From: Halobellus captivus
Lineage (GTDB): Archaea; Halobacteriota; Halobacteria; Halobacteriales; Haloferacaceae
Direction: 5' to 3'
DNA: 40,000 nucleotides
Assembly (NCBI RefSeq): GCF_007655485.1
Contig: NZ_VJXQ01000001.1
Span: 728,521-768,520, forward strand
Each line of letters opens with the position of its first letter. Position 1 is the stretch's first letter. Under the pieces are notes generated by a model. That model made no database searches. It had not been told where the DNA came from and saw only the letters and a list, made by a program, of their open reading frames with translations. The position numbers and the translations under genes were made by a program. Shown here piece by piece: positions 8,771 to 33,716 of the stretch.

Positions 8771-8797
8771 CCCGACAGTGAACACACAACTACACCC

Positions 8798-10228: not shown

Positions 10229-10229
10229 T

Positions 10230-11441
10230 ATGAGCAGCGCACAACTTCCCGCGAACCTGTCAGAGCAGACGGTTCGAGAGATCTCGGAGCGGCGGGACGA
10301 ACCCGAGTGGCTGCTGGAGGCGCGGCTCGACGCGCTCGACGCGCTCGACGCCATCGACCTGCCGGACGTCATCCAGACGCCCGGCCGCCGCTGGACCAAC
10401 CTCGAAGCGCTCGACTTCGAGTCACTCGTCGACCCGCTCAATCAGGCCGACGAGACCGAGCGCACGGCGGACGAAGGCGTCGACGTGCTCACGTTCACTG
10501 ACGCGCTCGAGGCGCATCCGGATCTCGTCGAGTCCGCGTTCGGCTCGACGATCGATCCGCAGGAGAACTACCTCACGGCGCTGTCGGCCGCACTCTTCAC
10601 GACCGGAACCGTCGTCTACGTCCCCGAGGGCGTCGACGCCGAGGACGTGACGATCCGCGCGGAGATGAACTCCCGCTCGCTGTTCAGTCACACGCTCGTG
10701 ATCACCGAGGAATCCTCGTCGGTGACGATTCTGGAGAGCATCGAGTCCGGTGCCGAGAGCGACGACGCGCGGTACTTTTCGAACCTCGTCGAAATCGACG
10801 CGGGCGAGAACTCCTACGTGCAGTACGGATCCCTGCAAAACCTCGCAGAAGATACCTACAGCTACTCGCTCAAGCGCGCGGACGTCGGAACCTACGCCAC
10901 GGTCAACTGGATCGAGGGCAACCTCGGTTCGCGGCTCACCCGCTCGGACGTCGAATCCGAACTCAACGGCGACTCCGCGGAGACGAAGATCGTCGGCGCG
11001 TTCTTCGGCCACGACGAACAGCACTTCGACGTCAACGCCCGCGTCTGGCACAACGCCGAGAACACGACGGCCGACCTCGTCACCCGCGGCGTCCTCGACG
11101 ACGCCGCCCGATCGGTGTACGAGGGCGTCCAGGACGTCGGCCGCGACGCGTGGAACACCTCCTCGTACCAGCGCGAGAACACGCTGATGCTCTCCGACGA
11201 GAGCGAGGCCGACGCGTCGCCGAAGCTGATCATCCACAACCACGACACCGAGGCGTCGCACTCGGCGACGGTCGGACAGGTCGATCAGGAGGACCTGTTC
11301 TATATGGTGTCGCGCGCGATCCACCCCGAGAAGGCGCGCAATATGCTCGTCGAGGGCTTCTTCGTTCCCGTGCTCGACGAGATCGACGTCGACGAGTTCC
11401 GCGAGGACCTCGAAGAACTGATCGCCGCGCGGCTTCGGTAA
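10230..11441 (+). CDS. sufD: Fe-S cluster assembly protein SufD
   Basis: 403 aa SufB/SufD-family paralog (FYMVSRAIHPEKARNMLVEGF). It starts 2 nt after the sufB stop. Confidence 0.9.
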   Translation: MSSAQLPANLSEQTVREISERRDEPEWLLEARLDALDALDAIDLPDVIQTPGRRWTNLEALDFESLVDPLNQADETERTADEGVDVLTFTDALEAHPDLVESAFGSTIDPQENYLTALSAALFTTGTVVYVPEGVDAEDVTIRAEMNSRSLFSHTLVITEESSSVTILESIESGAESDDARYFSNLVEIDAGENSYVQYGSLQNLAEDTYSYSLKRADVGTYATVNWIEGNLGSRLTRSDVESELNGDSAETKIVGAFFGHDEQHFDVNARVWHNAENTTADLVTRGVLDDAARSVYEGVQDVGRDAWNTSSYQRENTLMLSDESEADASPKLIIHNHDTEASHSATVGQVDQEDLFYMVSRAIHPEKARNMLVEGFFVPVLDEIDVDEFREDLEELIAARLR

Positions 11442-11492
11442 CGGCGCCCGGTTCGCCCCTCACCGGCGTCTCGGTCGGACCCTTACCGACCT

Positions 11493-11528
11493 CTCGGTTC
11501 GTTATCCCCTCTCGATTCGTTATCTCCC
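11493..11528. repeat. 18-bp tandem duplication spanning the stop codon of the 1023-aa gene
   Basis: ctcggttcgttatcccct (11493-11510) and ctcgattcgttatctccc (11511-11528), 15/18 identical. The TAA stop (11520-22) lies in unit 2 and a homologous tta lies in unit 1. Confidence 0.8.
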
Positions 11529-14500
11529 ATTTTCCCGCGGACACTGTCCGGTCGGCGTGACGCAGCGCGGTCCCGGAGACGGATCGCTCCACGCGAGCGA
11601 CCGCTCGTCCGAATTTCCGTCGGTGTCGCCGACGCCGAGTTTGCCGGGCGGGACGACCGCGAGCGCGACGGTCCGGACGCTGAAATCGACGCGCTCGCTT
11701 CGCCCCAGCGACTCCTCGGCCCCGTCGGCATCGACGTCGAGCGCGACCGCAGAGCCGTCGCGGACGTACGTCGTCTCCGATCCGGAGACGCCCACGGTGA
11801 ACCGGCCGTACGCGCCGCGCGATTCGACGATCCAGAGGTTCGCCGTGGCGACCCACGGGCTGAGCGTCGGCGAGATAGGGAGCCCCGCGGGAATGCCGCC
11901 GACGGTGTCGTTCGTCGCTCGCGTGATCGCCGTTTCCGTCGCGCGCTCTGCGGCGTCGTTCGCCTCTCGTTCGATCTCCGCGCGCACCGAGGAGACGGCG
12001 TCATCGACCGCGGATTCCGGAACGCGAACCCGCTCGGAGCTCGCGACGTGTCGGAGATCCACGCGCAACGCCGTCCGAATGCGATCCTCGGCGACGGCGG
12101 ACGGATCCCCGCGGCCGCCCGCTCCCGCGTCGATCGCGACCGACGCGACCTCGCGCGCCAGCGAGCCGTCGGTGGCCGCCACCGCGCGCTCGCCGGGGCC
12201 GTCGAAGCGGGCAAACGAGCGACGGACGACCCAGTCCCGTTCCTCGCGCGTGAGCGCCGTCTCCCGCATGAGGGTCCGCCTCGCCGTTCGGCGGACGTCT
12301 CGCATCGATCCGTCGACCTTCCGCTCGAGGACGTCCCGTTGGTCTCGGAGCGTCGGGTCCGGATGCGACTCGAGCGTCCGGTCAGCCGAGACGAGCGCCT
12401 GTCCGGCCGTGTGCAGCGACACGCGGCCGGGATCGCCGAACAGCACCCGCGTGACGATGTCCGCGGTGTCGCCGTAGGGGACGCTGAACACGTTGACGTT
12501 TCTGACCGCGAGACCAACGTACTGCTCGTCGTCCGCGACGCCGTCGACGAGCGCGCCCTCGACGGGGTCGGGCGCGAGGTAGGCGGGGTCGCCGTCGGGG
12601 ACGAACGTCGTCTCGCCGCGAGCGCCTGCTTCCGTCCCGTGATCTACCCGAGGCGCGGGTGGTTCGGGCGTGAGCGACGCGAGCTCGTTCACCCGCGAGG
12701 CGGCGAGCCCCCTCGCGCTCAGCGCGCGCTCGATCCCGGCGTTCTGCGACTGGGTCGCACCGGCGCGCTCGTCGAGCCGCGCGACCACCCGATCGAGGTA
12801 TGCCTCGCGGGCGGCGATCCGCGCGCGGTCGGCGACGCCGTCGTACGCTCGCGGAGCGTCGACCAGGTCCACGCGGCGGTCGCGAATGACCGATGCGAGT
12901 TCTGCAGCCCCGTTCTCGCGGCCGGTCGCGGCGTCGCTGGCCTCGACTTCCACCGAGAGACCGCGAACGCGCTCGCGGAGGTCGGCGACGTCGGCGTAGA
13001 TCCAGGAATCGAGATCGGCGGGGCGCTCGCCGGTGACCGTCCGCGACGCGCTCGTCCGGCCGCCGGTGACCGCTTTGCGAGCGATGGCGTCGGGACCGCC
13101 GAGGTCCGAAACGAGCGCGCCGCTCGCGGTGCGGCCTTCACGCAGATTCGGGCCTGAGAGTGCACCGCCCGATCGGAACAGCGGCCGGACGGATCGGGTC
13201 GGTGCCGCGCTCCCGCGCAACCGGGCCGTCGCCGTCACGCGGACGCGGTAGACGTCCTCCCACGACGCCGCAGTCGTCCGCGGCGTCTCGTTGAGCTTCA
13301 CCCACGTCCGCTCGACCCGCCACCGCTCGGTGACGCGCCGGGTGGCCGCGTAGAGCCTGCGCTCACCGGTCCCGATCCGTGAGATCGACCGAGCGCTGCC
13401 GCCGCCGCGCACGGAGACGTCCTTCGAGGTATCGGAGAACACGAGCGTCCAGTTCTCTCCGGGCGCGCGGGGCGAGGGTCGACGTTCGTTTCTGACCGTC
13501 TGCGCGGTGGTGCTCACGGAGACCGTGGCCTCGTAGCCGCCTCGACTGATCGAATCGAGGCGCTTCGCGCCGTTCGAGCCCCGAAGCAGTTCCAAGAACG
13601 CCTCGTCGGCGGTCTCGTTCACGCCCACGGAAACCGTCCGAGTCGCGGGGAGCGCGTCGGAACCGCGTTCGGCGTCTGCCCGCTCTGCGGCGTTGGGGTC
13701 CGGTAGCTGTCCCGTGACGGCGGACGCGACCCGAGAGTTCGACTGGAGATCGAGGACGTCGGCCGCGCCGGTCCGGACCGTGGCCGCTCGAACGCCCGCG
13801 GCCGCGTCGGGATCGCTCCGACCGAAGGCCGCGCGCTGCGCGTCGAGCAGTCCGGCGTTCGTCGAGAGCGCGACGTGGCGGTTCGCGACGACGTTCGAGA
13901 TCGGCAGGCCGCCGTACTGCCCGAGCCCGCGGGCTTGCGCCATTGCGGTGACGCCGACAGTCGTGCGCCGAGCGAGTCCCGGCCCTTCGAGCGGTCCGGC
14001 GTCAAGGCGGGCTTGAAAGCTCTCAGTTCTGTCGTGGAGTGCCAGTACCGGTACGCCCACGGTGACAGTCCGATCCACCCGTCGGGTGTCGACGACGCGG
14101 CCGTCCCGCTCGACCGTCAACTCGACGTCGCGGATCGTCGCGCGGAGTTCAGTTCCGTCGTCGACGCCCTCGATCGAGACGCGGTCGATCGCGTTCGGGA
14201 CCGGCTCGGCTGAGTCACCGAACGATGCGCGGGCGAGGCTGCCGCCGCGGCGGTGTTCGACCGGATCGATCGCCTCGCGCGCGGCGAGGAAGATCCGGAG
14301 TCGAAGGTATCGGCGGAACGTGTCGGGACCGTCGAGCGCGGCACCGGCCTCGGTGTCGGCGGCGACCGTCACCGGCTCTCGCGCCGCGGCGCGGGCGGCG
14401 TCTCGAACGGCCATCCTGAGCGCGGCCGTCACCTCTGCGTCGACGCGATCGGCGGCGATATCGGCCGATCGATCGACCGGCGCGGCCCCCGGCGTAGCGA

Positions 14501-14591
14501 GCGATGCGGCGAACGCAGAGCTCCCGACGAGCAGCAGCACGCCGACGAGTGCGAAGGGGACGCGGCCACGGTTGTCGTCCGCGAGTCGCAT
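11520..14591 (-). CDS. very large (~1023 aa) helix-anchored protein, last gene of the pilus-like locus
   Basis: The ORF is open to 14618. The start at 14591 (MRLADDNRGRVPFALVGVLLLVGSSAFAASLA) gives a TGATG overlap with the upstream stop. It has a single N-terminal hydrophobic helix followed by ~990 aa rich in Ala/Arg/Asp/Thr/Val, and two Cys near the C-terminus (PRCVTPTGQCP). I recognise no catalytic motif. Confidence 0.8.
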   Translation of the reverse strand: MRLADDNRGRVPFALVGVLLLVGSSAFAASLATPGAAPVDRSADIAADRVDAEVTAALRMAVRDAARAAAREPVTVAADTEAGAALDGPDTFRRYLRLRIFLAAREAIDPVEHRRGGSLARASFGDSAEPVPNAIDRVSIEGVDDGTELRATIRDVELTVERDGRVVDTRRVDRTVTVGVPVLALHDRTESFQARLDAGPLEGPGLARRTTVGVTAMAQARGLGQYGGLPISNVVANRHVALSTNAGLLDAQRAAFGRSDPDAAAGVRAATVRTGAADVLDLQSNSRVASAVTGQLPDPNAAERADAERGSDALPATRTVSVGVNETADEAFLELLRGSNGAKRLDSISRGGYEATVSVSTTAQTVRNERRPSPRAPGENWTLVFSDTSKDVSVRGGGSARSISRIGTGERRLYAATRRVTERWRVERTWVKLNETPRTTAASWEDVYRVRVTATARLRGSAAPTRSVRPLFRSGGALSGPNLREGRTASGALVSDLGGPDAIARKAVTGGRTSASRTVTGERPADLDSWIYADVADLRERVRGLSVEVEASDAATGRENGAAELASVIRDRRVDLVDAPRAYDGVADRARIAAREAYLDRVVARLDERAGATQSQNAGIERALSARGLAASRVNELASLTPEPPAPRVDHGTEAGARGETTFVPDGDPAYLAPDPVEGALVDGVADDEQYVGLAVRNVNVFSVPYGDTADIVTRVLFGDPGRVSLHTAGQALVSADRTLESHPDPTLRDQRDVLERKVDGSMRDVRRTARRTLMRETALTREERDWVVRRSFARFDGPGERAVAATDGSLAREVASVAIDAGAGGRGDPSAVAEDRIRTALRVDLRHVASSERVRVPESAVDDAVSSVRAEIEREANDAAERATETAITRATNDTVGGIPAGLPISPTLSPWVATANLWIVESRGAYGRFTVGVSGSETTYVRDGSAVALDVDADGAEESLGRSERVDFSVRTVALAVVPPGKLGVGDTDGNSDERSLAWSDPSPGPRCVTPTGQCPRENGR

Positions 14592-15535
14592 CAGCGCACC
14601 TCCGAGGCGGGCGACCACGTCCGGACGACGATCCGGACCGACGAGACCGTGACCGCCTCGGCGGCAGCCGTCGGCGTGTCGTAGCGGGCGCGGAGCTCAT
14701 CGGCGATCCGCGGGGCGAGCGCGGCCGTGACGCGCGCGTTCGCCGCCGCGGTGTCCTCCGTCGCGAGCGGTTCCGCGAGCGATACGTTCTCCTCGGAAGT
14801 CGCTTCGTTCGTCACCGCTTCGAGCCGCGCGTACCGATGTCGAACCAACGCGGCAGACGGATCGTTCCCGCGGAGCGTCGTTTTCGCGGGACCCGCCGGG
14901 ACGAGCACCGCGACAGTTCGATCGGCCACGACCGCACCGAGCGACTCGAAATCGGTCGTCGCCGATGCGGGAACCGGCTCGATTCCGGTCGGTACGACGA
15001 GCGTCGCGGCGTGAACGCCGTTCCGCGGCGGCGTCGGACCGACGCCGACCGCCCCGCCGACGGGCGAACCGGGGTAGGGACGCCACGTCGCGTCCACGCG
15101 GACGGTCGCGCCGGTCCGCGTCCGAACCGCGTCGGCAACGCCTCGTCGGAAGGACGCTCGCGTCCGGGTGAGCGGTTGAACCTCCGACGCGCGCGGGGTC
15201 GACGCGTTCGGATCCGCGCTCGCTTCGAGGTCGACGCCGCTGGTCGCCGTCGTGGCGCGCGCGAGCAACTCCGCGAGACTCCCGTGCGCGGTGCGGTCGA
15301 GTTCGGGCGAGTCGAGCGGAATCTCGGATCCGCCGGATGCCGCATCGCGCGCGTCCAACTCCCGGATGCCGGGCGCGAGCGAGTAGTCGACCTGCGCCGT
15401 CGTCGTCGCGAGCGCGTCCGCGACCGCGTCGGCCGCTCCCGGCGTTGCTGGCGGCGACTGCTCGATCGTGACGAGGCCGACGACGGCCGCCGAGACGAGA
15501 AGTAAGGAGACGACGGCGTCGATAGCGACGTTCAT
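14591..15535 (-). CDS. helix-anchored 314-aa protein of the pilus-like locus
   Basis: The start at 15535 (MNVAIDAVVSLLLVSAAVVGLVTIEQ) forms an ATGA overlap with the upstream stop. The Arg-rich 57-codon extension shown in the ORF track (to 15706) is rejected. It has an N-terminal hydrophobic helix and then a soluble domain. Confidence 0.75.
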   Translation of the reverse strand: MNVAIDAVVSLLLVSAAVVGLVTIEQSPPATPGAADAVADALATTTAQVDYSLAPGIRELDARDAASGGSEIPLDSPELDRTAHGSLAELLARATTATSGVDLEASADPNASTPRASEVQPLTRTRASFRRGVADAVRTRTGATVRVDATWRPYPGSPVGGAVGVGPTPPRNGVHAATLVVPTGIEPVPASATTDFESLGAVVADRTVAVLVPAGPAKTTLRGNDPSAALVRHRYARLEAVTNEATSEENVSLAEPLATEDTAAANARVTAALAPRIADELRARYDTPTAAAEAVTVSSVRIVVRTWSPASEVR

Positions 15536-16002
15536 CGCCACACCCAGACGCGGAGCGTTCCCCAGACGACGTCGCCGTCGGCCATCGAGACGCTCACCGG
15601 ACGCTCGGCGGCGTCGACGGCGGTGGAACCGGTGGCAGCGCTCGAACCCGTTCCATCGGCGTCGACAGTCGCCGCAGGCTCCGGCGGGTGGCGCCCGTTC
15701 GTCCACGTTCCCCTCGACGTCGTCACCGCGACGGCGACGCGGTAGCCGTCGGGTGTGGCGGGGCCGTCGTCCGGGAGACCGACCGGCGAGACGACGCCGC
15801 CGTCGCTCACCTCGTCGTAGACCCGTTCCAGCGTCGGTTCGGCGAGCGCATTCGCGGTCTCACCGGGCGTGACCACACCCAAGGTCGTCGCGTACAGCGA
15901 GAGCCCGGTACAGACCGCGAACAGCGCGATCAGGGCGACGAGCGGTGTCGTCTGCGCCCGCGACGCTCCGAGCGCGGATTCACGCGTCGACGAGAACGAC
16001 AT
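15532..16002 (-). CDS. pilin-like protein with a candidate class-III (PibD-type) signal peptide
   Basis: 156 aa. The N-terminus MSFSSTRESALGASRA/QTTPLVALIALFAVCTGLSLYA matches the archaeal type-IV pilin pattern: a charged leader, R-A then Q, and ~20 hydrophobic residues. Confidence 0.75.
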   Translation of the reverse strand: MSFSSTRESALGASRAQTTPLVALIALFAVCTGLSLYATTLGVVTPGETANALAEPTLERVYDEVSDGGVVSPVGLPDDGPATPDGYRVAVAVTTSRGTWTNGRHPPEPAATVDADGTGSSAATGSTAVDAAERPVSVSMADGDVVWGTLRVWVWR

Positions 16003-16459
16003 TCACTCCCTCCCACGAGATCCGTCGGACGATGAGCGTGCGTTCCACGGGACGCCAGGGGGCGTCACTGGCCGCCGCTCGCGCGTCGACGACCGCCTGC
16101 CTGAACGCGTCCGGCGAGTCGAAGGCCCGTTCCGGCGGCGTGCCGTACAACACGTCCCGAAGCGGCGAGTCGTCGACGGGAACGGGCGTGACCGGCCCGA
16201 ACGCCAGCGTCGCGTGCGCCGTTCCCGACCCGGATCTGAGCCCGATCCGACGCGTCCCGAGCCTGATCTCGTCGGCGTCGAGCGGGTGCTCGCCGGTGGC
16301 GGCGTACTCCGCGGCGGCGACGCGGTCCACCGTCGCGGCGGCGGCCCCTGCGTCCGGCGGCGGTGCCGTCGGAAGTCCGGTCGCCGCGCCCACGAGCGCC
16401 ACGCCCGCCAGCGAGAGACCGATCCAGCCGTACCACGCGTCCAGCGTCAGGTCGAACAT
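15980..16459 (-). CDS. helix-anchored 159-aa protein of the pilus-like locus
   Basis: N-terminus MFDLTLDAWYGWIGLSLAGVALVGAATGL followed by a soluble domain. It is preceded by a TATA element at leaderless spacing, and its 3' end overlaps the next gene by 23 nt. Confidence 0.75.
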   Translation of the reverse strand: MFDLTLDAWYGWIGLSLAGVALVGAATGLPTAPPPDAGAAAATVDRVAAAEYAATGEHPLDADEIRLGTRRIGLRSGSGTAHATLAFGPVTPVPVDDSPLRDVLYGTPPERAFDSPDAFRQAVVDARAAASDAPWRPVERTLIVRRISWEGVNVVLVDA

Positions 16460-16480
16460 AGCCCCGTTGGCCGCGTTTCA

Positions 16481-16490
16481 GTATATAAAC
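16481..16490 (-). promoter_or_regulatory. TATA element (minus strand GTTTATATAC) 31 nt upstream of the start codon at 16459
   Basis: Read directly. The spacing and sequence match the element at 20600-20609. The centre lies about -26/-27 relative to the ATG, the geometry expected for a leaderless haloarchaeal mRNA. Confidence 0.7.
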
Positions 16491-16532
16491 CATCGCCTCC
16501 GAGTGGCGAGTGGATCGCCGGTCGCGGCCGGA

Positions 16533-18323
16533 TCAAAACAGCATCGACGCGCCCAGGAACGCGACGAGATACGTCACCGTTGCCGAGACGAGGGCGAGGC
16601 CGACCCGGTAGCCGACGAGCGAGCGGTCGAGGCCGCGGTCGAGCCCCGTCGCCAGCGCGGTGAGAATCACCGCGAGCGCGAGCACGTACACGCCGACGGC
16701 CGCGCCGAGCGTCGCGGGCGGGAGCGTCGCGGCACCCGGCGCACCCGCTCCCCCAACCGCTGCGCTCGATCCGGCGACTGACGCACCCTGCATCGTCGCA
16801 CCCTGTGCCGTCGCTCCCGACCTCGTCATCTGCGTCGCCATCGCGACGGTCGCGCCGCCGACGAGCGGACCGAACAGCGCCGCGGTGTGTCCCAGCGTGC
16901 CCGTGATGGCGGCGAGTTCCCGTCGCGCCTCGTCCTCGACGCGCCGGAGTTCGGTGAGGTGATCCGCCAGTCGGACGAGCGTCGCGCCAGCCGGGCGGCC
17001 CTCTTCGGCGGCGACCGCGAGAAGCGAAGCCGTCGCCCGCGCCCGTCGACTCGGCAGATCGCGCAGCGCGCCGTACTCGCCCAGAAACGCCCGGTGAACG
17101 CCCACTTGCAGGCGACGCTGGACGCCAGCGGCCGCGTCGAACAGGTCGCTGGTCCGCCCAGTCGTCGCCGCCGCGGCCGACTCGATCGCCGTTTCAACGG
17201 CCTCTCCGGACCCGACGCGGCGCCCGATGACGGCCGTCGCGTCGGCGAGACCGGCTTCGACCTCGGTCACGTCGCGCCGGACCGCGGCCATCGGTCGGTA
17301 GTGAACGACGAGCGTCGCGCCGACGCCGACACCCACAGCGGCAACGGGCGCGGCCCACGAAGCGACGAGCGAACCGCCGCCGAATCCGAGACCGATCCCG
17401 ATGACGCCCGCCGGGACGCCGTGGGGCGATCCGGAGGGAACGTCCGGATGCGCGGTGGTCACGCGGGGAGGCGCGATCGCGATCGGACGCCGGAGAAGGA
17501 GCCACGCGCCCGCGCCGACGAGCCCGATCGGGAGAAGGAGATCGTACAGGACCACGAACACCGACGTGGGGATCGTCACCCCACCGGCGCGGGCGGCGGG
17601 CAGTACGCCGACGAGCGCGAGCGGGAGGAGGACGCCGAAGGCGTAAATCCCGCTGGCGGGACCGCGCGCCTCGCCCGCGAACTCCACCATCTCCGTCCGC
17701 GCGCCGTCGAGAACGGTTTCCAGCGCGCGGTCGAGTGCGCGATCCCGTTCGTCGGCCGGGGCTTCGACGGCGGCCGCGAGCAGCGCGATCGACCGTTCGA
17801 GCGCGGGAAACCACGAACGCCACTCCGAGGCGAAGGCGTCGAGCCCCGCGGACGGTCCCGAGCGGGTTCGTTCGGTATGGGCGGTCAGACTGCGGGCGAG
17901 CGGCCCCGTCCCGGTCCGGGCGGCGAACGCCGCGGCCCGCTCGGGCGTCGCTTCGAGGCGGAGGCTGAGCGCCGCGCGCGCGACGATCCCCGGCGCGTCA
18001 CCGAGTGCGCGGGTCCGCCGGAGCGTCGCGGCGGCGACGGGGAGCCGGTGGACGACGTGAGTGGCTCCGAGGCCGACGCCCGCGGCCGCCGTGACCGACG
18101 CCACAACGGGGAACGCGGGAAGGAGCACGACGAGCGCGCAGAGCGTCAAGAGAGCGACGGGAGCCGCGGCGACGTATCCGGCGCGAACGAGGGTGTCGGC
18201 GCGGAGTTCGCTGCCGAGAAACGCCAGCGAGCGGTGGAGTTCGTCGGTCGGTTCGACCTCCCCGGGGTACCACCCGGCGAGCGCGCGAGTGATCCGACGG
18301 ATCCGAGCGGCGCTCGCGGTCAT
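16533..18323 (-). CDS. polytopic membrane protein, PilC/FlaJ/TadC-like (T2SS-F family) platform protein
   Basis: 596 aa with many long hydrophobic segments. Its start overlaps the ATPase stop (ATGA at 18320-18323), the canonical ATPase-platform gene pair arrangement. Family assignment rests on context and topology, not on a search. Confidence 0.78.
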   Translation of the reverse strand: MTASAARIRRITRALAGWYPGEVEPTDELHRSLAFLGSELRADTLVRAGYVAAAPVALLTLCALVVLLPAFPVVASVTAAAGVGLGATHVVHRLPVAAATLRRTRALGDAPGIVARAALSLRLEATPERAAAFAARTGTGPLARSLTAHTERTRSGPSAGLDAFASEWRSWFPALERSIALLAAAVEAPADERDRALDRALETVLDGARTEMVEFAGEARGPASGIYAFGVLLPLALVGVLPAARAGGVTIPTSVFVVLYDLLLPIGLVGAGAWLLLRRPIAIAPPRVTTAHPDVPSGSPHGVPAGVIGIGLGFGGGSLVASWAAPVAAVGVGVGATLVVHYRPMAAVRRDVTEVEAGLADATAVIGRRVGSGEAVETAIESAAAATTGRTSDLFDAAAGVQRRLQVGVHRAFLGEYGALRDLPSRRARATASLLAVAAEEGRPAGATLVRLADHLTELRRVEDEARRELAAITGTLGHTAALFGPLVGGATVAMATQMTRSGATAQGATMQGASVAGSSAAVGGAGAPGAATLPPATLGAAVGVYVLALAVILTALATGLDRGLDRSLVGYRVGLALVSATVTYLVAFLGASMLF

Positions 18324-20578
18324 TGCAGACTCCCGTTCCGACTCCGATCACACGCGTCGGGCGTCGTCAGCGAGGCATTCGCGAGTCGGTCGAAGCGGGC
18401 CGTCCGACGGTCGAGACGCGACAGGAGGTCGCTGTAGGATCCTCCGTCGCGACAGAGCCGCTCGAAGACCGCGCTGTCGCCCCGCTCGACGGCCCCCGTC
18501 GACTGGAGTCTTCCGTCACGACGCTGAAACAGCGACACGAACGCGGATTCCTCGCCGGTCGTCCGCACTTCTTCGACGGCGGCGACGTACCGCGAGTCGC
18601 CCTGGCGCGCGCAGGTGACGACCAGATCCGTGGCTCCGAACGACGACGGTGCGACGCCGAGATCGGAGACGACGCGCTCTCGGACCGCGGAAGCGGAGTC
18701 ACCGTGGATCGTCCCGAGCACGGCGTGGCCGTGCGCGCCGACGCGCATCGCCTCGTACAGGGACTTCGCTTCGTCGCCCCTGACTTCGCCGACGACGAGC
18801 GCCCCGTCGCCGAGCCTGAGCGCGGTTCGCAGCGCGTCCGTCGGGGAGAATCCGCCGGTCACGGCTCCGCCAGCGGTTCCGCTCGACCGACTCCCCCCCG
18901 CGCCGCCTCCGCCGCCCGCACCCACGTCGGTGTGTAACGCCTGGACGTCGCGGCCGTGCTCGCGCAGCGCGTCGACGGGAAGTTCCGGGGTGTCCTCGAT
19001 GCTCACGAGTCGCGTCGTCCGTGGAAGCTCCCACAGGAGCGCGCCGAGGAGCGTCGTCTTCCCGGCCCCGCGCGTGCCAGCGACGATGGTCGCCGCACCG
19101 CGTTCGGCGGCGAGAGAGAGGAACGCCGCCGCGTCGGCCGGAAGCGATCCGGCGGCGACGAGTCGCGGGAGCGTCCACGCGTCGTCGTCGCGGGCGCGGA
19201 AGGCGAATCCGACCCCGTCGCTAGCGGGTGCGGTCACCCCGGCGACCCGGATCCGACGCCCCGTCTCGGTGACGATCGACGCGTCGAGCGCGGGCGAACT
19301 CCGCGAGAAGGCGCGACCGCTCTCGCGGCGGAACCGCGAGGCGAGCGAGGCCGCGCCGTCCGGCGTCAGGCGGACGTTGGTCGGAACCCGCTCGCCGTCG
19401 ACGACGACCCGGACGGGCGCGTCCGTCACGGGGGCGGAGACGACGACGTCGGAGATCCGCTCGTCGGCGAAGAAGTGCTCGAAAACACCGAGACCGTGGG
19501 TGTGTCGGTCGAGTACCGCGGCGAGCGTTTCGATTGGATCGTCCGCCCCGGTGACGCGCCTGACCGCCCGTCCGGCCGCGCGCGGCCCGCCATCGACGGA
19601 TCCGTTCGCGAGGACGCGGTAGGCCGCCGAGAGCGTCGCCGTCGCGTCGCCATCGAGACCGTGCGCGACCGGCGTGAGGTGATACAGCGGCCCGTCAGGC
19701 GTGTCGTATCGGCGCGCCTCGGCACCGGTCGGCAGCGAACGCGTCTCGCGAAGCGCGGCCGACGGCGGGGGACGCGTCGAAACGCGAGCCCGGCAAACGG
19801 TCGGTCCGACGAACGCGCGGAGGGCACTCTCGTATCGACCGCAACCGGGGCGTGAATCGGTCGCGTCGGTTCCGTTGATCGAGTCGGTCGCATCGGTCCC
19901 ATCGGTTCCGTCGATCCAGGCGGTCCCGTCGATCGCCGCCGTCGATCGCCGTTCGGTAACCCGCTCGGCACCCGCCGCGAGCCCGGATTCGGCCGCGATT
20001 CGTGCGAGCGCGCCCGCCCGGCCAGCCGCCCGATGGGCGGCCCCGAGCGGATCGACGCGAGCGCGCTCCGCCAGCGATTCGTCGTGGACGCGCGCCCGTT
20101 CGGCGAATCGCCCCGCGGCGAGCAAGAGCCCCACGGCTGCGTCCGAATACGCGCGTTCGACACCCTCGGAACGCGTTCGGACGACGTCGACGTCGCGGTC
20201 TTCGAGCGCGGCGATCACGGTCGCTCGGCACCCCCGACTGCGGGCCAGATCGCCCGCTCCGGGGCAGGCCGATCCGTCGGCGACGAGTTCTCGACGATCG
20301 GCCATTCCCGTTCCGATAGGCTGTTCGAAGTCGATATCACACCGACATTCGTGGGCCGTTTCCGGCGTCTCGGCTTCACCGCCGCCCTCGTGTCGGTCGC
20401 TGCCGCCGTCCGTCGTCAGTCCCAACGCCGCCGAGAGCTCGTCGACGGCTGCCGCCACTGCGGCGAGCCCTGAGACGCTCTCGGCGGGCGATTCGTCTGC
20501 GAGGGGTTCGTCCGCGGTCGATCCCTCGGGCGTCAGTTCGTCCGCGGCGTGGTGCGCGCCGTCGCGGGGCAGAGTCAT
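18320..20578 (-). CDS. type II/IV secretion-family ATPase (PilB/FlaI/TadA class) with a long N-terminal extension
   Basis: 752 aa. Walker A GTRGAGKTT (residues ~501-509 by my count), Asp box VSIEDTPEL, Walker B ALVVGEVRGDE, His box GTIHG. The N-domain motif GVFEHFFADERISDVVV is at ~364-380. Residues 1-~290 are unassignable and include C78, C80, C105 and C117. Confidence 0.9.
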   Translation of the reverse strand: MTLPRDGAHHAADELTPEGSTADEPLADESPAESVSGLAAVAAAVDELSAALGLTTDGGSDRHEGGGEAETPETAHECRCDIDFEQPIGTGMADRRELVADGSACPGAGDLARSRGCRATVIAALEDRDVDVVRTRSEGVERAYSDAAVGLLLAAGRFAERARVHDESLAERARVDPLGAAHRAAGRAGALARIAAESGLAAGAERVTERRSTAAIDGTAWIDGTDGTDATDSINGTDATDSRPGCGRYESALRAFVGPTVCRARVSTRPPPSAALRETRSLPTGAEARRYDTPDGPLYHLTPVAHGLDGDATATLSAAYRVLANGSVDGGPRAAGRAVRRVTGADDPIETLAAVLDRHTHGLGVFEHFFADERISDVVVSAPVTDAPVRVVVDGERVPTNVRLTPDGAASLASRFRRESGRAFSRSSPALDASIVTETGRRIRVAGVTAPASDGVGFAFRARDDDAWTLPRLVAAGSLPADAAAFLSLAAERGAATIVAGTRGAGKTTLLGALLWELPRTTRLVSIEDTPELPVDALREHGRDVQALHTDVGAGGGGGAGGSRSSGTAGGAVTGGFSPTDALRTALRLGDGALVVGEVRGDEAKSLYEAMRVGAHGHAVLGTIHGDSASAVRERVVSDLGVAPSSFGATDLVVTCARQGDSRYVAAVEEVRTTGEESAFVSLFQRRDGRLQSTGAVERGDSAVFERLCRDGGSYSDLLSRLDRRTARFDRLANASLTTPDACDRSRNGSLQ

Positions 20579-20599
20579 AGCGCCGGTGGCCGCGTCTCC

Positions 20600-20609
20600 G
20601 TATATAAAC
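20600..20609 (-). promoter_or_regulatory. TATA element (minus strand GTTTATATAC) 31 nt upstream of the ATPase start codon at 20578
   Basis: Read directly. The 34 nt ending in the ATG match the cassette at 16457-16490 at 30 of 34 positions. Confidence 0.7.
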
Positions 20610-20662
20610 GGTCGGTCCGGGCGCGTTTCGGCGTCTGGAGCAGAGACGTGTCTCTTCGTCGT

Positions 20663-21124
20663 TCACCCGCGCGTCACGACGAGCACCGGCTGCCCCCTGT
20701 CGGCGACGAGCGCGATCGACACCGCGTGCCGCCCGGTCGCCTCGAACACGACGGGACCGTCGGGCGTGCGCACCGGGGTCGGAATCGAGAGGCTCCGAAG
20801 GCGAGTCGAACCGGTAGACGGCCCGTAGACCACGGTCGAGCGGTTTCCCGGGCCGTCAGGTTTCCCGCCGACGGCGACGAACGACGGCCGCGCGGTCGTC
20901 AGCGACGCGCGCGGGAACCGGACGGTCACGCGTCGCGTCGCCGCGTGGCTCCGCCTCGAGGTCGCGTCTTCGCCCGTTGCGAGCGCTCGTCCGGCGCGTT
21001 CGATTCGGTCGATCGTCCCCTCTAGTTTCGCGTCCGTGCCGGTCGCTCGGGCGTCGTCGATGGCGGGCATCGCGGCCGCCAGCGTCGCCACTGTCAGCAC
21101 CGCGGCGACGACCAGGCGGATCAC
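20663..21124 (-). CDS. helix-anchored 153-aa protein of the pilus-like locus (GTG start)
   Basis: N-terminus (M)IRLVVAAVLTVATLAAAMPAIDD followed by a soluble domain. Its GTG start overlaps the upstream stop (GTGA at 21121-21124). Confidence 0.7.
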   Translation of the reverse strand: MIRLVVAAVLTVATLAAAMPAIDDARATGTDAKLEGTIDRIERAGRALATGEDATSRRSHAATRRVTVRFPRASLTTARPSFVAVGGKPDGPGNRSTVVYGPSTGSTRLRSLSIPTPVRTPDGPVVFEATGRHAVSIALVADRGQPVLVVTRG

Positions 21125-21759
21125 CGGAACGCGTCGCGGAGTCGAGTCGCCAGCGACTCGTCGTCGCCGTCGGGCAGTCCCGCGTCGGGATCATCCGCGT
21201 CGAAGTCGAATGCGCCGCCGGGTCTCGGAGACCGAGAGTCGCCGTCGAGCGGAGACTGAGTATCGCCGTCCGGCGGAGACCGAGCATCGCCGTCCAGTGG
21301 ATCCTGAACATCGCTGTCGTCGGCGACGGTCGAGCTGTCTGGCCTGCGCGCCTCGGCGAACCGCTCACGGACCAGGCCGTCGTCCGCGGGCGCGAGCTGT
21401 CGTTCCAACGACTCAACTTTCGCGAGCGCGATCGACGCGCGCTTTTCGACGCGCTCGTCGACGGTTTCGACGCCACCGAGAAGTCCGCGTACCGCGTCGA
21501 TCTCGGCTTCCACCGCCGTCAATCGGCCGTCGAGTGCCTCGATCTGCGCTTCGACCGGCGGATCGACCTCCATCGTTTCAGTCGGCGCTGGTGGTCCGTC
21601 AGTGGACGAGGTTTCACTCGTTGCAGTCCGTTCGTCAGTGGACGGCGTTTCGCCCTCGCGAACGTTCGGTTCGGTATCACTGGCGTTCGATTCGGTATCA
21701 CTGCCGTTCGGTTCCGTCGTCGGCTTCGAGCGCTCGCCCATCTCCGGGGAGGTGGTCAT
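21121..21759 (-). CDS. acidic coiled-coil protein with low-complexity repeats, first gene of the pilus-like locus
   Basis: I chose the start at 21759 (MTTSPEMGERS...) because a TATA element sits exactly 31 nt upstream, and because the longer track ORF (to 22176) runs antisense into cetZ. It has an S/T/E/P-rich N-terminus (SDTESNASDTEPN), a heptad-like core (VEAQIEALDGRLTAVEAEIDAVRGLL...VEKRASIALAKVESLERQL) and SP(L/P)DGD repeats. No TM segment. Confidence 0.7.
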   Translation of the reverse strand: MTTSPEMGERSKPTTEPNGSDTESNASDTEPNVREGETPSTDERTATSETSSTDGPPAPTETMEVDPPVEAQIEALDGRLTAVEAEIDAVRGLLGGVETVDERVEKRASIALAKVESLERQLAPADDGLVRERFAEARRPDSSTVADDSDVQDPLDGDARSPPDGDTQSPLDGDSRSPRPGGAFDFDADDPDAGLPDGDDESLATRLRDAFR

Positions 21760-21780
21760 ACCGCGAGTGGTTCCGCCATC

Positions 21781-21790
21781 GGTTATAAAC
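21781..21790 (-). promoter_or_regulatory. TATA element (minus strand GTTTATAACC) 31 nt upstream of the start at 21759; near-palindromic and possibly shared with divergent cetZ
   Basis: Read directly. It is in the same register as the elements at 16481-16490 and 20600-20609. On the plus strand it reads TTATAAA, 44-50 nt upstream of the cetZ ATG. Confidence 0.6.
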
Positions 21791-21832
21791 ACCAGCACCA
21801 ACGTTGAAGGTCCACCTCGGAGATACACGGGT

Positions 21833-22921
21833 ATGAAGTCCGTCCTGATTGGCGTCGGCCAGGCCGGGGGAAAGCTCACCCGGGAACTGGTCGACTTCGA
21901 CGAGCAGATGGGGTTCGGTTCCATCCGCGGCGCTGTCGGAGTCAACACCGCGCAGGCAGACCTCCGTGACCTCCCGTTCGAGACCGTTCTCGTCGGCCAA
22001 GACCGCGTGAAAGGCCAAGGCGTCGGCGGCGACAACGAACTCGGTGCGGAAGTGATGCAATCGGATCTCCAGGAAGTCCTCGCCGCGCTCGACGGCCGCA
22101 TAACCGCCGGAACCGAATCGATCTTCGTCGTCGCGGGACTCGGCGGCGGCACCGGCAGCGGCGGCGCACCGGTCATCGCGAAAGAGCTCAGTCGCGTGTA
22201 CGACGTCCCGATCTACGGCCTCGGAATCCTGCCCGGCCGCGACGAGGGATCGATGTACCAGGTCAACGCCGGGCGGTCGCTGAAGACGTTCGCTCGCGAG
22301 GCCGACTCGCTTCTCCTCGTCGACAACGACGCTTTCCGCTCGGTCGGCGAGAGCGTCACCGAGGGATTCGATTCCATCAACGGGGAGATCGCCAAACGAG
22401 TCGGGCTGTTGCTCGCCTCCGGCGAGTCCGTCGACGGCGTCGCCGAAAGCGTCGTCGACTCCTCGGAGATCATCAACACGCTCCGGAACGGATCGATCGC
22501 TGCGCTCGGCTACGCCTCCGCGGAGGCGGCCCCCGAGGCCGAGGACAACATCAACACCGTGATGAGCACCACCCGCCGCGCGCTGCTGACGGGATCGAGC
22601 CTGCCGGATACGACCGACGCGGAGGCCGCGCTGGTCGTCGTGGCCGGGAAGCAAGAGGCGATCCCGCGGAAGGGCGTCGAGCGCGCCCGCCGCTGGGTCG
22701 AAGAGGAGACCGGAAGCCTGCAGGTCCGCGGCGGCGACTTCCCGCTTGCGAGCGATCGCATCGCGGTGCTCATCCTCCTCGGCGGCGTGGAGCGCTCCGA
22801 ACGGCTGGAGGCGTTTATGCAGCGCGCGAAAGACGCGCGAGAACAGGAGGCGACCGCTGAAACGAAGCCGTCGGACCCGGGCGATCTGTGGGCCAACGAC
22901 GAACTCGAAGACCTGTTGTAA
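21833..22921 (+). CDS. cetZ: CetZ-family tubulin/FtsZ-superfamily protein
   Basis: 362 aa from the Met at 21833 (MKSVLIGVGQAGGKL...). The tubulin signature is VVAGLGGGTGSGGAPV (GGGTGSG as in CetZ/tubulin rather than the FtsZ GGGTGTG), followed by LGILPGRDEG, and the C-terminus is an acidic tail. The upstream 77 codons in the track ORF are rejected. Confidence 0.9.
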   Translation: MKSVLIGVGQAGGKLTRELVDFDEQMGFGSIRGAVGVNTAQADLRDLPFETVLVGQDRVKGQGVGGDNELGAEVMQSDLQEVLAALDGRITAGTESIFVVAGLGGGTGSGGAPVIAKELSRVYDVPIYGLGILPGRDEGSMYQVNAGRSLKTFAREADSLLLVDNDAFRSVGESVTEGFDSINGEIAKRVGLLLASGESVDGVAESVVDSSEIINTLRNGSIAALGYASAEAAPEAEDNINTVMSTTRRALLTGSSLPDTTDAEAALVVVAGKQEAIPRKGVERARRWVEEETGSLQVRGGDFPLASDRIAVLILLGGVERSERLEAFMQRAKDAREQEATAETKPSDPGDLWANDELEDLL

Positions 22922-22992: not shown

Positions 22993-24342
22993 TTACTGCT
23001 GGAGGAGGCTCGCGCCGTCGAACTCCGCGCGGGCGTAGTCGACGTCCATCAGATCGAGGATCGTCGGCGCGATGTCGTAGAGATCCGCGTCCGTGATGTC
23101 GACGTCCGCGTCGTCGACGAACAGCGAGGCGTTGTCGAAGCTGTGCATCCCGTTCCGGGGCCCTTTCCCGAACACGTCCTCGTGGCCTTTGAACCCGGAT
23201 TTGAGATCGAAGCCGTGGTTGGGGACGACGACGAGGTCCGGCGCGATGTCGTCGTGGTCGCCGCGGAAGGCGTCCTCCTTCTCGACGACGCGGTCTGCGA
23301 CCTTCCGCCCGTCCGGCCCCTCCATCGCTTCGAGTTCGGCTTTGAGTTCGGCGCGCGCCTCCTCGTACTCGTCCGCCGGGACGCTGCCGCGCGGTTCGCG
23401 CCCCTCGAGGTTGATGTAGAACCGCCCCGGAATGAGCGAGTACGCCCGCGCGTCGTCGGCGATGTCGCCCAGTTCCTCGTGGTCGTCGTCCGCATAGGAG
23501 AGCCAGCCCTGCTCTTCGAGCCACGCGTTGCAGTGGACCTCATAATCCAGCGAGGTGAAACCGTGATCCGACGCGACCACGAGCGTCACGTCCTCGGGCA
23601 GGGAGTCGCGGATCTTCCCGATGTAGTCGTCGAGCTTCTCGTAGAACTCGATGAACGCGTTCTTGTTCTCGCCGTCGCGCTCGTAGTCCTCGAAGAGGAA
23701 GTGGTTCACCCGATCGGTCGTCATAAAGACGCCGAAGAAGAGGTCCCAGTCGTCGCGGTCGAGAATCGAGGAGAAGGCGTCGTACCGACGGTCGAGCGTC
23801 TCGTGCGCGTTCTCGACGAAGTCGGATTTGTCGTCGTCGTGGCCGAGTTTGGCGTTGACGTCGATGCGATAGCCCAACTCGTCGAGTTCGTCGCGGAACT
23901 CGTCGGGGTGGGCGGCCTTCTTGACGCCGGGGGAGAGGAATCCCGAAACCATCCGCTGGACGTTGCGCTGCGGCGGGAACGTCACGGGGACGTTCATCAC
24001 GCTCGCCTGTCGACCGTCGTCGGTCACGCGGTCCCACAGGCGCGTCGCCTGCACGTCGCGCCCCATCGGAACGTAGGTGTCATACGAGCCGTTCTCGCGG
24101 TCTTGGAAGCCGTATACCCCCGTCTCGCCCGGGTTCACGCCGGTCGTCAGCGAGGGCCAGCAGGCGGAGGACTCGGGGGGAACGATGCTTTCGATCGCAC
24201 CGGCGCTGCCGTCGTCGGCGAGTGCGGCGAAGTTCGGAAAGGTGTCGGGGTTATCGGCGAGGAGACTAAACGGTACGCCGTCGATACCGATGAAGGCGAC
24301 GCGCGGGTGGTCTTCCCCGCGCAGCCGGTCGAACAATCCCAT
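22993..24342 (-). CDS. alkaline-phosphatase-superfamily enzyme (type I phosphodiesterase / nucleotide pyrophosphatase-like)
   Basis: 449 aa from the Met at 24342 (MGLFDRLRGEDHPRVAFIGIDGVPFSLL...). Motifs GIDGV, CWPSLTTGVNPGETGVYG and VVASDHGF are typical of the family. The upstream 50 codons overlap a repeat array and are rejected. Confidence 0.82.
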   Translation of the reverse strand: MGLFDRLRGEDHPRVAFIGIDGVPFSLLADNPDTFPNFAALADDGSAGAIESIVPPESSACWPSLTTGVNPGETGVYGFQDRENGSYDTYVPMGRDVQATRLWDRVTDDGRQASVMNVPVTFPPQRNVQRMVSGFLSPGVKKAAHPDEFRDELDELGYRIDVNAKLGHDDDKSDFVENAHETLDRRYDAFSSILDRDDWDLFFGVFMTTDRVNHFLFEDYERDGENKNAFIEFYEKLDDYIGKIRDSLPEDVTLVVASDHGFTSLDYEVHCNAWLEEQGWLSYADDDHEELGDIADDARAYSLIPGRFYINLEGREPRGSVPADEYEEARAELKAELEAMEGPDGRKVADRVVEKEDAFRGDHDDIAPDLVVVPNHGFDLKSGFKGHEDVFGKGPRNGMHSFDNASLFVDDADVDITDADLYDIAPTILDLMDVDYARAEFDGASLLQQ

Positions 24343-24432
24343 ACCGTCCGTATTTCCTCGTGGCTCATAAGAAGTTTCGTCTCCGCGCGAACGACTGCCG
24401 CTGTCTCGGACGCGGAACGCTCCAACCGAAAC

Positions 24433-24552: not shown

Positions 24553-24637
24553 CGAACCGCACGCGCGAACTCGACGCCCGGAGCCGAACTCGCCGAAGGA
24601 GCGAAGTACGCGCCGCGGTAAGGAGTGAGTAAGAGCC

Positions 24638-26877: not shown

Positions 26878-26897
26878 GCGTTGGAGAGCGAGTGACG

Positions 26898-33713: not shown

Positions 33714-33716
33714 GTT

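Follow-up and report, generated by a model that had tools for sequence, protein, structure and literature searches.

The 40,000-nucleotide stretch of Halobellus captivus DNA analysed here (the window) carries eight complete open reading frames on its minus strand, numbered g1 to g8 in the direction of reading and lying at the coordinates given in a preliminary description of the region. The first two encode a 212-aa acidic, Asp-rich cytoplasmic coiled-coil protein (g1, 21121–21759) and a 153-aa basic, N-terminally anchored protein (g2, 20663–21124). They are followed by a 752-aa secretion ATPase of the PilB/FlaI/TadA class (g3, 18320–20578) and a 596-aa polytopic platform protein resembling TadC, PilC and FlaJ (g4, 16533–18323; arCOG01814 type). 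The remaining four genes encode a 159-aa protein with a single-helix anchor (g5, 15980–16459), a 156-aa pilin-like protein (g6, 15532–16002), a 314-aa protein again anchored by a single helix (g7, 14591–15535) and a surface protein of 1023 aa counted from its ATG (g8, 11520–14591), for which the databases hold a Halobellus captivus protein of identical length and 100% identity. Read directly from the sequence, five junctions are overlaps, namely GTGA between g1 and g2 (21121–21124), ATGA between g3 and g4 (18320–18323), 23 nt between g5 and g6 (15980–16002), ATGA between g6 and g7 (15532–15535) and TGATG between g7 and g8 (14589–14593). The chain of overlapping genes described earlier is nevertheless broken at two of the seven junctions, by gaps of 84 nt between g2 and g3 (20579–20662) and 73 nt between g4 and g5 (16460–16532), each containing a promoter-like element. 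The cetZ2 gene (21833–22921, plus strand) diverges from the cluster 73 bp from the start of g1, and together with genes for SufCBD, PolB and PAN it makes up the housekeeping neighbourhood previously noted in the flanks.

The assignment of the cluster to the type-IV-filament class of assembly loci is borne out by its two core components. The g3 product matches the Pfam T2SSE model with 70.8 bits (cut-off 24.9), and all four motifs reported for it were located (Walker A GTRGAGKTT at residue 501, the Asp box IEDTPE at 527, Walker B LVVGEVRGDE at 594 and the His box GTIH at 622). The best PDB relatives of its family profile are afGspE (2oap), CpaF and FlaI, and these matches, with the T2SSE hit and the four motifs, place it among the ATPases of the TFF superfamily. 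Its N-terminal domain contains four cysteines, C78, C80, C105 and C117, which are invariant in 19 orthologues (pattern CxC...CPGxGDL...C). The expected match of the g4 product to T2SSF proved weak, at 24.2 bits (E = 3.6e-5) about 1 bit below the gathering cut-off of 25.2; the model is matched by eight of 18 orthologues (E ≤ 0.01), and a profile search of PDB sequences gave no match. At least seven hydrophobic segments, the ATGA coupling to g3 and the position and size of the protein all fit a platform component.

The six accessory proteins, previously considered unassignable, each match a dedicated Pfam family of unknown function far above its cut-off: g1 DUF7310 (PF23991, 64.9 bits; arCOG07564 type), g2 DUF7311 (PF23993, 145 bits; arCOG10216 type), g5 DUF7283 (PF23954, 191 bits; arCOG04673 type), g6 DUF7285 (PF23956, 119.6 bits; arCOG05166 type), g7 DUF7284 (PF23955, 262.6 bits; arCOG06291 type) and g8 DUF7286 (PF23957, 1136 bits; arCOG02945 type). 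The g1 protein (pI 4.05, 25% D+E) lacks a transmembrane segment and includes in-frame tandem repeats, whereas that of g2 has a pI of 11.6 (orthologue median 11.0) and begins with MIR followed directly by a transmembrane helix, with neither a leader nor a G/A cleavage site found across 35 orthologues. Makarova et al. (2016) labelled the family of g2, arCOG10216, a “predicted major pilin”; contrary to that prediction, we infer that the protein is an accessory on the cytoplasmic side.

A conserved prepilin-type cleavage motif was found only in g6 and g8, where cleavage is predicted from a motif-level comparison across orthologues. In g6, which carries a canonical class III signal, R[AG]|Q is present in 59 of 69 orthologues after a leader varying from 6 to 37 aa. 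In g8, leaders of varying length (5–38 aa) precede the motif DDxR[GA]|R[VI]PFAL; 79 of 80 orthologues have A or G at -1, and R[AG]|R occurs in 76 of the 80. At the level of motifs, both proteins thus qualify as TFF class III subunits with variable leaders, but the R at +1 of g8 lies outside the FlaFind-type rules, and an A-x-A-like site past its hydrophobic stretch would also permit ordinary signal-peptidase cleavage. Contrary to the earlier claim that the 156-aa protein alone has a convincing class III signal, the 314-aa g7 protein fits the FlaFind-type pattern as well (DA|VV); its processing is uncertain because about 40% of orthologues have V at -1. The conserved N-terminus of g5, MFDxPxDAWYxWxG, does not match the class III motif. 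The AF2 model of g6 (pLDDT 78) consists of a long N-terminal helix and a four-stranded sheet, and that of g8 (pLDDT 75.9) has a mixed alpha/beta fold; neither matched solved pilins structurally, and a Foldseek search of the g8 model against the PDB returned nothing below E = 0.3.

This Halobellus captivus locus is orthologous to a type-IV-filament system already known from Halobacteria, which Makarova et al. (2016) and a 2026 TFF preprint call subclade or subsystem 4F and which Brown and Duggin (2023) describe as the cetZ2-adjacent pilB2/C2 regulon. The preliminary description had found no resemblance to known adhesion-pilus operons, yet gene order and sizes match the subclade_4F rows for Haloarcula hispanica in Table S4 of Makarova et al. 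(2016), which comprise arCOG07564, 10216, 01818, 01814, 04673, 05166, 06291 and 02945. Direct homology and collinearity extend to loci of Halomicrobium, Haloferax and other genera, and all eight families lie on one strand in 58 of the 63 full related genome loci, from about 15 genera. The Hfx. volcanii pilB2/C2 regulon has the same eight families in identical order and with near-identical sizes, and shares with the Halobellus locus the 4F hallmarks of a Cys-rich N-terminal ATPase domain (an extra domain described for 4F by Makarova et al. 2016), an Asp-rich coiled-coil protein, a surface protein of about 1000 aa and a divergent, FtsZ-family cetZ2 gene. Judging from this synteny, the ATPase probably belongs to the 4F branch of the archaeal secretion-ATPase tree. 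Against the PDB, the cetZ2 product scores 534 bits with 4b45 and 322 bits with 4b46, which we take to be Hfx. volcanii CetZ2 and CetZ1, respectively. The divergent adjacency is kept in most related loci, and Brown and Duggin (2023) devote their section 3.8 to it.

Two differences set the Halobellus locus apart from other 4F loci. Its ATPase is longer, at 752 as against about 620–700 aa, through an acidic N-terminal extension and a repeat insert; and whereas in most genera g8 is followed by a DUF5791 gene (arCOG04674) and an epimerase gene, neither of which is found in the window, the Halobellus g8 faces a convergent sufBCD operon. The system is thus, gene for gene, one already described in silico, but an experimentally characterised counterpart was not found, and our survey of the literature revealed no experiment on any 4F locus.

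The sister group within clade 4 is subclade 4C, exemplified by pil-2 (pilB2/pilC2) of Halobacterium salinarum (Losensky et al. 2015), in which a haloarchaea-specific ATPase/TadC pair likewise precedes several small pilin-like genes. However, the TadC protein of 4C belongs to arCOG01810 rather than arCOG01814, the pilin set differs (arCOG06296, 03933, 04679 and 04680), and the ATPase of Hbt. salinarum clusters with Hfx. volcanii GI 292654785 and not with the 4F ATPases. The shared name “pilB2” is misleading, and what has been measured of pil-2 expression in Hbt. salinarum cannot be transferred to the Halobellus locus. Among the other systems compared, the bacterial Tad/Flp pilus provides the best NCBIfam match of the ATPase (TadA, TIGR03819; 113.7 bits against a cut-off of 373) and, in CpaF, one of its best solved relatives, and its layout is loosely parallel, with an ATPase and a platform followed by two small and one large helix-anchored protein; however, Flp pilin, TadZ, the secretin RcpA and TadV were not found, and the accessory proteins show no detectable similarity to Tad proteins. 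The archaellum has the ATPase and platform superfamilies in common with the locus, and its FlaF and FlaG, like some of the accessory proteins, have uncleaved N-terminal anchors. As stated earlier, the locus is not an archaellum: the FlaI equivalog model scores 71.8 bits (cut-off 550), and none of the archaellin, FlaC-H, che or prepilin-peptidase families occurs among the approximately 28 window ORFs scanned. Nor does the locus qualify as a Bas (bindosome assembly) system of Sulfolobus, which comprises BasE/BasF and BasABC, the BasE model reaching 45.6 bits against a cut-off of 1000; this low score weakens a claim of membership in Bas but leaves room for a mode of action that may be bindosome-like.

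The cluster appears to be organised as three translationally coupled units, g1-g2, g3-g4 and g5-g6-g7-g8, each preceded by a minus-strand promoter-like element in which a TATA box lies 30 nt ahead of the ATG, with a box of consensus CGSGRCCA at -16 to -9. Ahead of g1 (21760–21789) the TATA sequence is TTTATA (21784–21789) and the box is CGGAACCA (21768–21775), with the ATG at 21757–21759. In the elements of the g3-g4 unit (20579–20608; TATA 20603–20608, box 20587–20594) and of the g5-g8 unit (16460–16489; TATA 16484–16489, box 16468–16475) the box reads CGCGGCCA. The g3-g4 element exactly matches a strict pattern, TTTAWA-N8-9-CGSGRCCA, which has two matches in the window against 0.01 expected. 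Across 36 genome loci the pattern has 55 matches, every one of them on the coding strand and positioned at a g1, g3 or g5 start; under a looser pattern, 135 of 150 matches fall at these starts. In an independent metagenome set, 15 occupied loci gave 23 matches, 10 empty loci gave none, and 523 kb of sequence elsewhere gave two. When the regions upstream of 74 g5 orthologues were aligned solely by their start codons, their consensus had an identical TATA sequence and box, and the g1 architecture recurs upstream of g1 orthologues in other genera. The CGSGRCCA box is almost exclusive to the three unit starts across many genera. With transcription starts placed by spacing alone, the mRNAs are probably leaderless, since each unit begins 30 nt after its TATA box, and because the box is common to all three units they are probably switched together by one factor.

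From what is known of type IV filament machines, we infer that the locus encodes one in which a processed subunit is of giant size. A hexameric ATPase, with its additional four-cysteine N-terminal domain, would drive the TadC-like platform, which would lift subunits from the membrane after their processing by a prepilin peptidase whose gene lies elsewhere. The archaeal enzyme (PibD/FlaK) is usually encoded elsewhere in the genome. The processed subunits would be the small DUF7285 and the 1023-aa DUF7286 proteins, both with a conserved R-[A/G] motif; the products of the coupled genes g5-g8 may make up a module of priming, tip or minor subunits in which the giant protein is the exposed head, and the acidic g1 and basic g2 proteins may pair as accessories on the cytoplasmic side, with a possible link to CetZ2. 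The major filament subunit, if any, is probably encoded elsewhere in the genome.

A rather unlikely alternative is that the machine acts not as an adhesive pilus but like the Sulfolobus bindosome system or a type II secretion pseudopilus, with a short membrane-embedded piston built from the small subunits, possibly positioned by CetZ2, installing the 1023-aa DUF7286 protein in the cell envelope or displaying it there. This protein is by far the largest product and has a conserved prepilin-like N-terminus; the translational coupling of g5-g8 points to complexes of set stoichiometry and not to a single abundant filament subunit, and no PilA-type pilin is encoded in the locus or the window. Visible pili in Hfx. 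volcanii derive from pilB3C3 only, none having been attributed to its other clusters, and BasE is among the weak matches of the ATPase. However, it ranks there below both TadA and FlaI, and Makarova et al. (2016) linked stand-alone PilA-family pilins (arCOG02981) to 4F systems, while the present observations fit a short and a long filament alike.

The base composition bears on the origin of the machine's genes. GC content is 0.72–0.74 in the locus and 0.62–0.67 in its flanks, so the composition is not native in the plain sense proposed earlier, but GC3 (0.81–0.88 in g2-g8 and 0.73 in g1) is like that of the flanking genes (0.80–0.89). Because the excess is confined to codon positions 1 and 2, it reflects amino-acid composition and not foreign origin. 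A recently imported mobile island, as opposed to a resident part of the chromosome, would accord with the excess of 5–10 points and with the presence or absence of the whole block at always the same site, flanked by cetZ2 and the DUF5791/epimerase pair. We nonetheless consider this very improbable, given not only the codon positions concerned but also that Pfam scans of the window ORFs revealed no integrase or transposase and no flanking repeat was seen, that no tRNA gene is adjacent (the sole one lies 10 kb off), that the g8-sufD junction is identical in all 10 Halobellus loci long enough to cover it, and that the locus proteins diverge in step with CetZ2 and the phosphodiesterase (rho 0.57–0.82). 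The description of the locus as ancestral is roughly right for the genus, but across the class it behaves as a presence/absence cassette. That the cluster is a decaying, non-functional relic is scarcely credible: it has no known phenotype, its accessory proteins evolve fast (median identity 39–52% versus 70–80% in neighbours) and several products are far less acidic than is usual in haloarchaea, but its reading frames are intact, dN/dS values of 0.15–0.39 show all eight genes to be under purifying selection, the complete gene set is widely retained and the promoters are conserved across genera.

Taken as a whole, the identity, organisation and mechanism set out here for a 4F type-IV-filament system make up an explanation that we regard as likely to be correct. 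The locus is real and conserved, but its kind has already been catalogued beside cetZ2 in many haloarchaea; what goes beyond the published descriptions is its division into three transcription units, the distribution of signal peptides among its products and the recognition of occupied and empty sites.

The eight genes of the locus, designated g1 to g8, constitute a conserved, selected gene set of the type-IV-filament class with three similarly built promoters. They are present in the window as intact minus-strand reading frames running from 21759 down to 11520, and the five overlaps named in the preliminary description (GTGA at 21121-21124, ATGA at 18320-18323, 23 nt at 15980-16002, ATGA at 15532-15535 and TGATG at 14589-14593) can be read directly off the sequence, the other two junctions being gaps of 84 nt (g2/g3) and 73 nt (g4/g5). 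The motifs of the ATPase encoded by g3 are likewise found at the positions ascribed to them, and g8, when read from the ATG at 14591, specifies 1023 aa, identical in length (and 100% identical in sequence) to the database protein of Halobellus captivus. The general class proposed earlier, a type-IV-filament type assembly locus, is correct; the claim that the accessory proteins are unassignable has to be withdrawn, since Pfam gives every product a family, namely DUF7310 for g1 (64.9 bits), DUF7311 for g2 (145 bits), DUF7283 for g5 (191 bits), DUF7285 for g6 (120 bits), DUF7284 for g7 (263 bits) and DUF7286 for g8 (1136 bits). As for the core pair, the anticipated T2SSE match was obtained for the ATPase (70.8 bits), whereas the T2SSF match of the platform protein g4 stays below the cut-off (24.2 versus 25.2 bits, E = 3.6e-5). 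The idea of duplicated pilins was dropped for lack of sequence-level support, as the hhalign probability stayed below 4% for each accessory pair compared (g2/g5, g6/g7, g6/g2, g6/g8).

Among the products, the ATPase alone is matched by NCBIfam models, best by the TadA family (113.7 bits) and next by FlaI (71.8 bits), all these matches being far under the respective equivalog cut-offs. A profile of 19 orthologues, in which four N-terminal cysteines are invariant, identified Archaeoglobus GspE (2oap), Caulobacter CpaF and Sulfolobus FlaI as the nearest relatives with solved structures. The ATPase from the window is longer than its orthologues partly because of tandem repeats; an in-frame repeat in its N-terminal region (19856-19935) has 18/36-nt units encoding GTDATDS-like repeats. 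The T2SSF model is matched by 8 of 18 orthologues of the platform protein, and the profile of this family retrieved no match from PDB sequences.

The existence, composition and cetZ2 linkage of the locus are already published: judged from its genes, it is the orthologue of a system so far described in silico, so the novelty suggested for it does not hold. Makarova, Koonin and Albers (2016) recognized subclade 4F as a halobacterial system around clade-4 ATPases, marked by an ATPase with a variable Cys-rich N-terminal domain, the unique cytoplasmic coiled-coil protein arCOG07564, a gene of the FtsZ family nearby and, frequently, a large protein of the surface or S-layer-like type. In their Table S4, the locus of Haloarcula hispanica reads arCOG07564, arCOG10216, arCOG01818 (ATPase), arCOG01814 (TadC), arCOG04673, arCOG05166, arCOG06291 and arCOG02945 (surface protein), continuing with arCOG04674 and an epimerase; its gene order and sizes match g1-g8 one to one. 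Brown and Duggin (2023) reported that the pilB2/C2 regulon specifically adjoins cetZ2 in Haloferacales and Halobacteriales, and a 2026 preprint again presents subsystem 4F with CetZ2 and the adhesin-like protein arCOG02945. The nomenclature is confusing, as "pilB2" denotes the cetZ2-adjacent 4F ATPase in Haloferax volcanii and an ATPase of subclade 4C, not 4F, in Halobacterium salinarum (Losensky et al. 2015; classification from the supplement of Makarova et al.), and one paper assigns both PilB1 and PilB2 of Hfx. volcanii to 4C. Since pil-2 of Halobacterium salinarum belongs to 4C according to that supplement, its expression data are inapplicable to the present locus and were rejected as evidence. 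Visible pili of Hfx. volcanii have been reported from pilB3C3 only; our literature search encountered no experiments with any 4F locus, and nothing under the DUF names or HVO_0740-0745.

A profile of g8 detected relatives in at least 274 species-level haloarchaeal genomes, from which 79 loci were retrieved; the genera concerned include Halobellus, Halopelagius, Halogeometricum, Halogranum, Haloplanus, Haloferax, Halorubrum, Halobaculum, Haladaptatus, Halorussus, Halomicrobium and Halostella. All eight families occur on a single strand in 58 of the 63 loci having the full 10 kb upstream, and in most of these cetZ2 is divergent and upstream. The corresponding tubulin-like gene of the window (plus strand, 21833-22921) scores 534 bits to PDB entry 4b45, which is CetZ2 of Hfx. 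volcanii, versus 322 bits to 4b46, which is CetZ1. Comparison among Halobellus species gives dN/dS values of 0.15-0.39 for each of the eight genes. The products of the locus diverge more rapidly than those of the neighbouring genes (median identity 39-52% versus 70-80%), yet the extent of their divergence parallels that seen in CetZ2 and the phosphodiesterase (rho 0.57-0.82). One locus, with g4-g8 on contig CAWGFK010000010.1, comes from a MAG labelled "uncultured cyanobacterium", most probably through faulty binning.

The flanks of the locus (1-11441 and 22993-40000) consist of ordinary housekeeping genes, encoding an Mre11-like phosphoesterase, PAN, DUF7346/DUF7322, PolB, SufCBD, a type I phosphodiesterase, PolX, DUF7139/7140, a CAAX protease, a peroxiredoxin, MscS and two GT4 glycosyltransferases, together with a small MarR-type HTH protein (1721-1993) and tRNA-Arg(CCT) (31700-31773). 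The base composition had been called native, which is true of GC3 (0.81-0.88 in g2-g8 and 0.73 in g1, flanking genes 0.80-0.89) but not of overall GC, which exceeds that of the flanks across the locus. The excess lies in codon positions 1 and 2, which points to Ala/Arg/Gly-rich proteins and not to foreign DNA, and a foreign origin judged from GC content was rejected on the same ground.

Metagenomes scanned with a CetZ2 profile served as an independent test set. About 15 CetZ2 loci proved to be "occupied" by the block and 10 "empty"; in the latter, cetZ2 has a DUF5791 gene (arCOG04674) and an epimerase as immediate neighbours. The block was found at none of the CetZ1-like loci of this set. DUF5791, the family of the small gene after g8 in most genera, also follows g8 in 42 of the 63 genome loci; the eight-gene block is therefore a cassette that is either present or absent at a single fixed site. 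On its far side, Halobellus instead has the convergent sufBCD operon, a junction common to all ten loci long enough to include it and seen in no other genus, and neither DUF5791/arCOG04674 nor the epimerase was found in the window. The locus is therefore at least as old as the genus, and its description as ancestral can be kept to this extent but not across the class, where it is a presence/absence cassette; the class-wide pattern possibly reflects one old insertion followed by losses. The Halobellus-specific junction carries an 18-nt direct repeat at 11490-11524 (CCTCTCGATTCGTTATCC, 1.9 copies, 94% match), which spans the g8 stop and the short convergent spacer to sufD. A 1156-aa metagenomic homologue of g8 (P0106) contains both PF23957 (DUF7286) and PF19104 (DUF5791), and may be a genuine fusion or the result of a gene call that read through.

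The three promoters are an addition to the published descriptions. TTTATA begins 30 nt before the ATG of g1, g3 and g5, and an eight-base box lies at -16 to -9, reading CGGAACCA in g1 and CGCGGCCA in both g3 and g5; the upstream 33-mers of g3 and g5 (TATA through ATG) differ at five positions only. The strict pattern TTTAWA-N8-9-CGSGRCCA has two matches in the window versus 0.01 expected. It has 55 matches distributed over 36 of the 79 genome loci; every one is on the coding strand and, judged by position, at a g1, g3 or g5 start. At these starts a looser pattern places 135 of its 150 matches, the remainder lying mostly ahead of g1-like genes missed by tblastn. The same TATA and box emerge when 74 g5 upstream regions are aligned on the start codon alone, and the metagenome set yielded 23 matches in occupied loci, none in empty ones and two in 523 kb of other sequence. 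An inverted repeat around the box was considered and dropped after a permutation test (mean best stem 3.62 versus 3.49 ± 0.07 with permuted pairings). Haloarchaeal promoters have TATA elements centred near -27, and the mRNAs are mostly leaderless. From this and the TATA spacing we infer three leaderless transcription units sharing one regulatory element. The g1 and cetZ2 starts are 73 bp apart on opposite strands (spacer 21760-21832), and the g1 element TTTATAA (21783-21789), nearly palindromic and the sole obvious A/T-rich element in this spacer, might serve both genes.

A census of prepilin-peptidase-like substrates is likewise new. A convincing class-III signal had previously been ascribed to the 156-aa g6 only. 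The g6 motif is indeed conserved, 59 of 69 orthologues having a leader of 6-37 aa, R-[A/G]↓Q-x-x-P (the arrow marks the putative cleavage site) and then a conserved hydrophobic helix, and the predicted model combines a long N-terminal helix with a small sheet. In the window genome g7 also fits a FlaFind-type pattern, but its -1 residue is V in about 40% of orthologues. The weak candidate noticed in the 1023-aa g8 gains in credibility: a leader of 5-38 aa precedes D-D-x-R-[A/G]↓R-[V/I]-P-F-A-L, of 80 orthologues 45 have A and 34 have G at -1 (79 in all), R[AG]↓R is kept in 76 of 80, and R8, R10, P12 and F13 are invariant. Such conservation would be unusual in an ordinary signal peptide and agrees with processing by a prepilin peptidase, although R is an atypical +1 residue for that enzyme; g8 may instead be cleaved at a signal-peptidase-I-like site farther along, where an A-x-A-like sequence lies near residue 37. 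The N-termini of g5 and g2 are conserved without a cleavage motif, and a FlaFind-like six-frame scan of the window for extra pilin genes returned only g7 and two internal TM segments of unrelated proteins. Comparison of the g8 and g6 models with solved structures gave no match. The C-terminal ~90 residues of g8 (11520-11800) include invariant D952, D954, D956 and E960 in a pattern, DxDxDG...E, reminiscent of calcium-binding loops, as well as a conserved GVGDxDGN motif and nearly invariant C1010 and C1017; no PGF-CTERM or C-terminal anchor was found there.

The first two genes (20663-21759) differ strikingly in charge, g1 being very acidic (pI 4.05) and g2, with a pI of 11.6 and a median of 11.0 over 35 orthologues, strongly basic. 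Basic proteins are uncommon among haloarchaea. This contrast, with translational coupling via GTGA, suggests a charge-complementary pair, and we regard g1-g2 as accessory, a reading that departs from the suggestion of Makarova et al. (2016) that arCOG10216, the g2 type, is a major pilin. In-frame tandem repeats at 21226-21318 and 21663-21714 in g1 (24-nt and 21-nt units) encode acidic peptide repeats. At one metagenomic locus, L097, g1-like (DUF7310, 99.5 bits) and g2-like genes (L097:8739-9907, minus strand) stand alone beside cetZ2 (L097:10001-11077), retaining the upstream TATA and a CGGGACCA box, and within 9 kb no ATPase, TadC or g5-g8 was found. The arrangement is a hint that the g1-g2 unit could work for CetZ2 without the remaining locus.

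In the mechanism that we propose, the ATPase hexamer would power the TadC-like platform, which would pull processed g6 and g8, perhaps also g7, out of the membrane. The products of g5-g8 would form a stoichiometric priming or tip module exposing the 1023-aa protein, g1-g2 would work on the cytoplasmic side, possibly toward CetZ2, and any abundant filament subunit would be encoded outside the locus. Its chief competitor, which the present data accommodate as well, is that the machine resembles a bindosome or a pseudopilus and would serve to install the giant protein, not to make a long pilus. An unlikely alternative holds that 4F is a cytoskeleton-coupled envelope device, not an adhesion pilus, with the acidic coiled-coil protein g1 and the basic, anchored g2 coupling the platform to filaments of CetZ2, the ATPase then installing or extending the giant DUF7286 protein at particular places, and a single dedicated regulator switching everything on through the CGSGRCCA box; in its favour are the L097 arrangement, box included, the short distance between the g1 and cetZ2 starts, and the fact that no pili have been ascribed to the cetZ2-linked 4F cluster.

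Being widespread and located beside a tubulin-like cytoskeletal gene, the locus is a fair experimental target. The box common to its three units provides a lead to the regulator, for which DUF5791/arCOG04674 is one candidate, to the inducing condition and to any subunit genes elsewhere, and the occupied and empty sites offer a clean pair for comparative work. Together with the census of processing motifs, these two resources make the question of function easier to attack.
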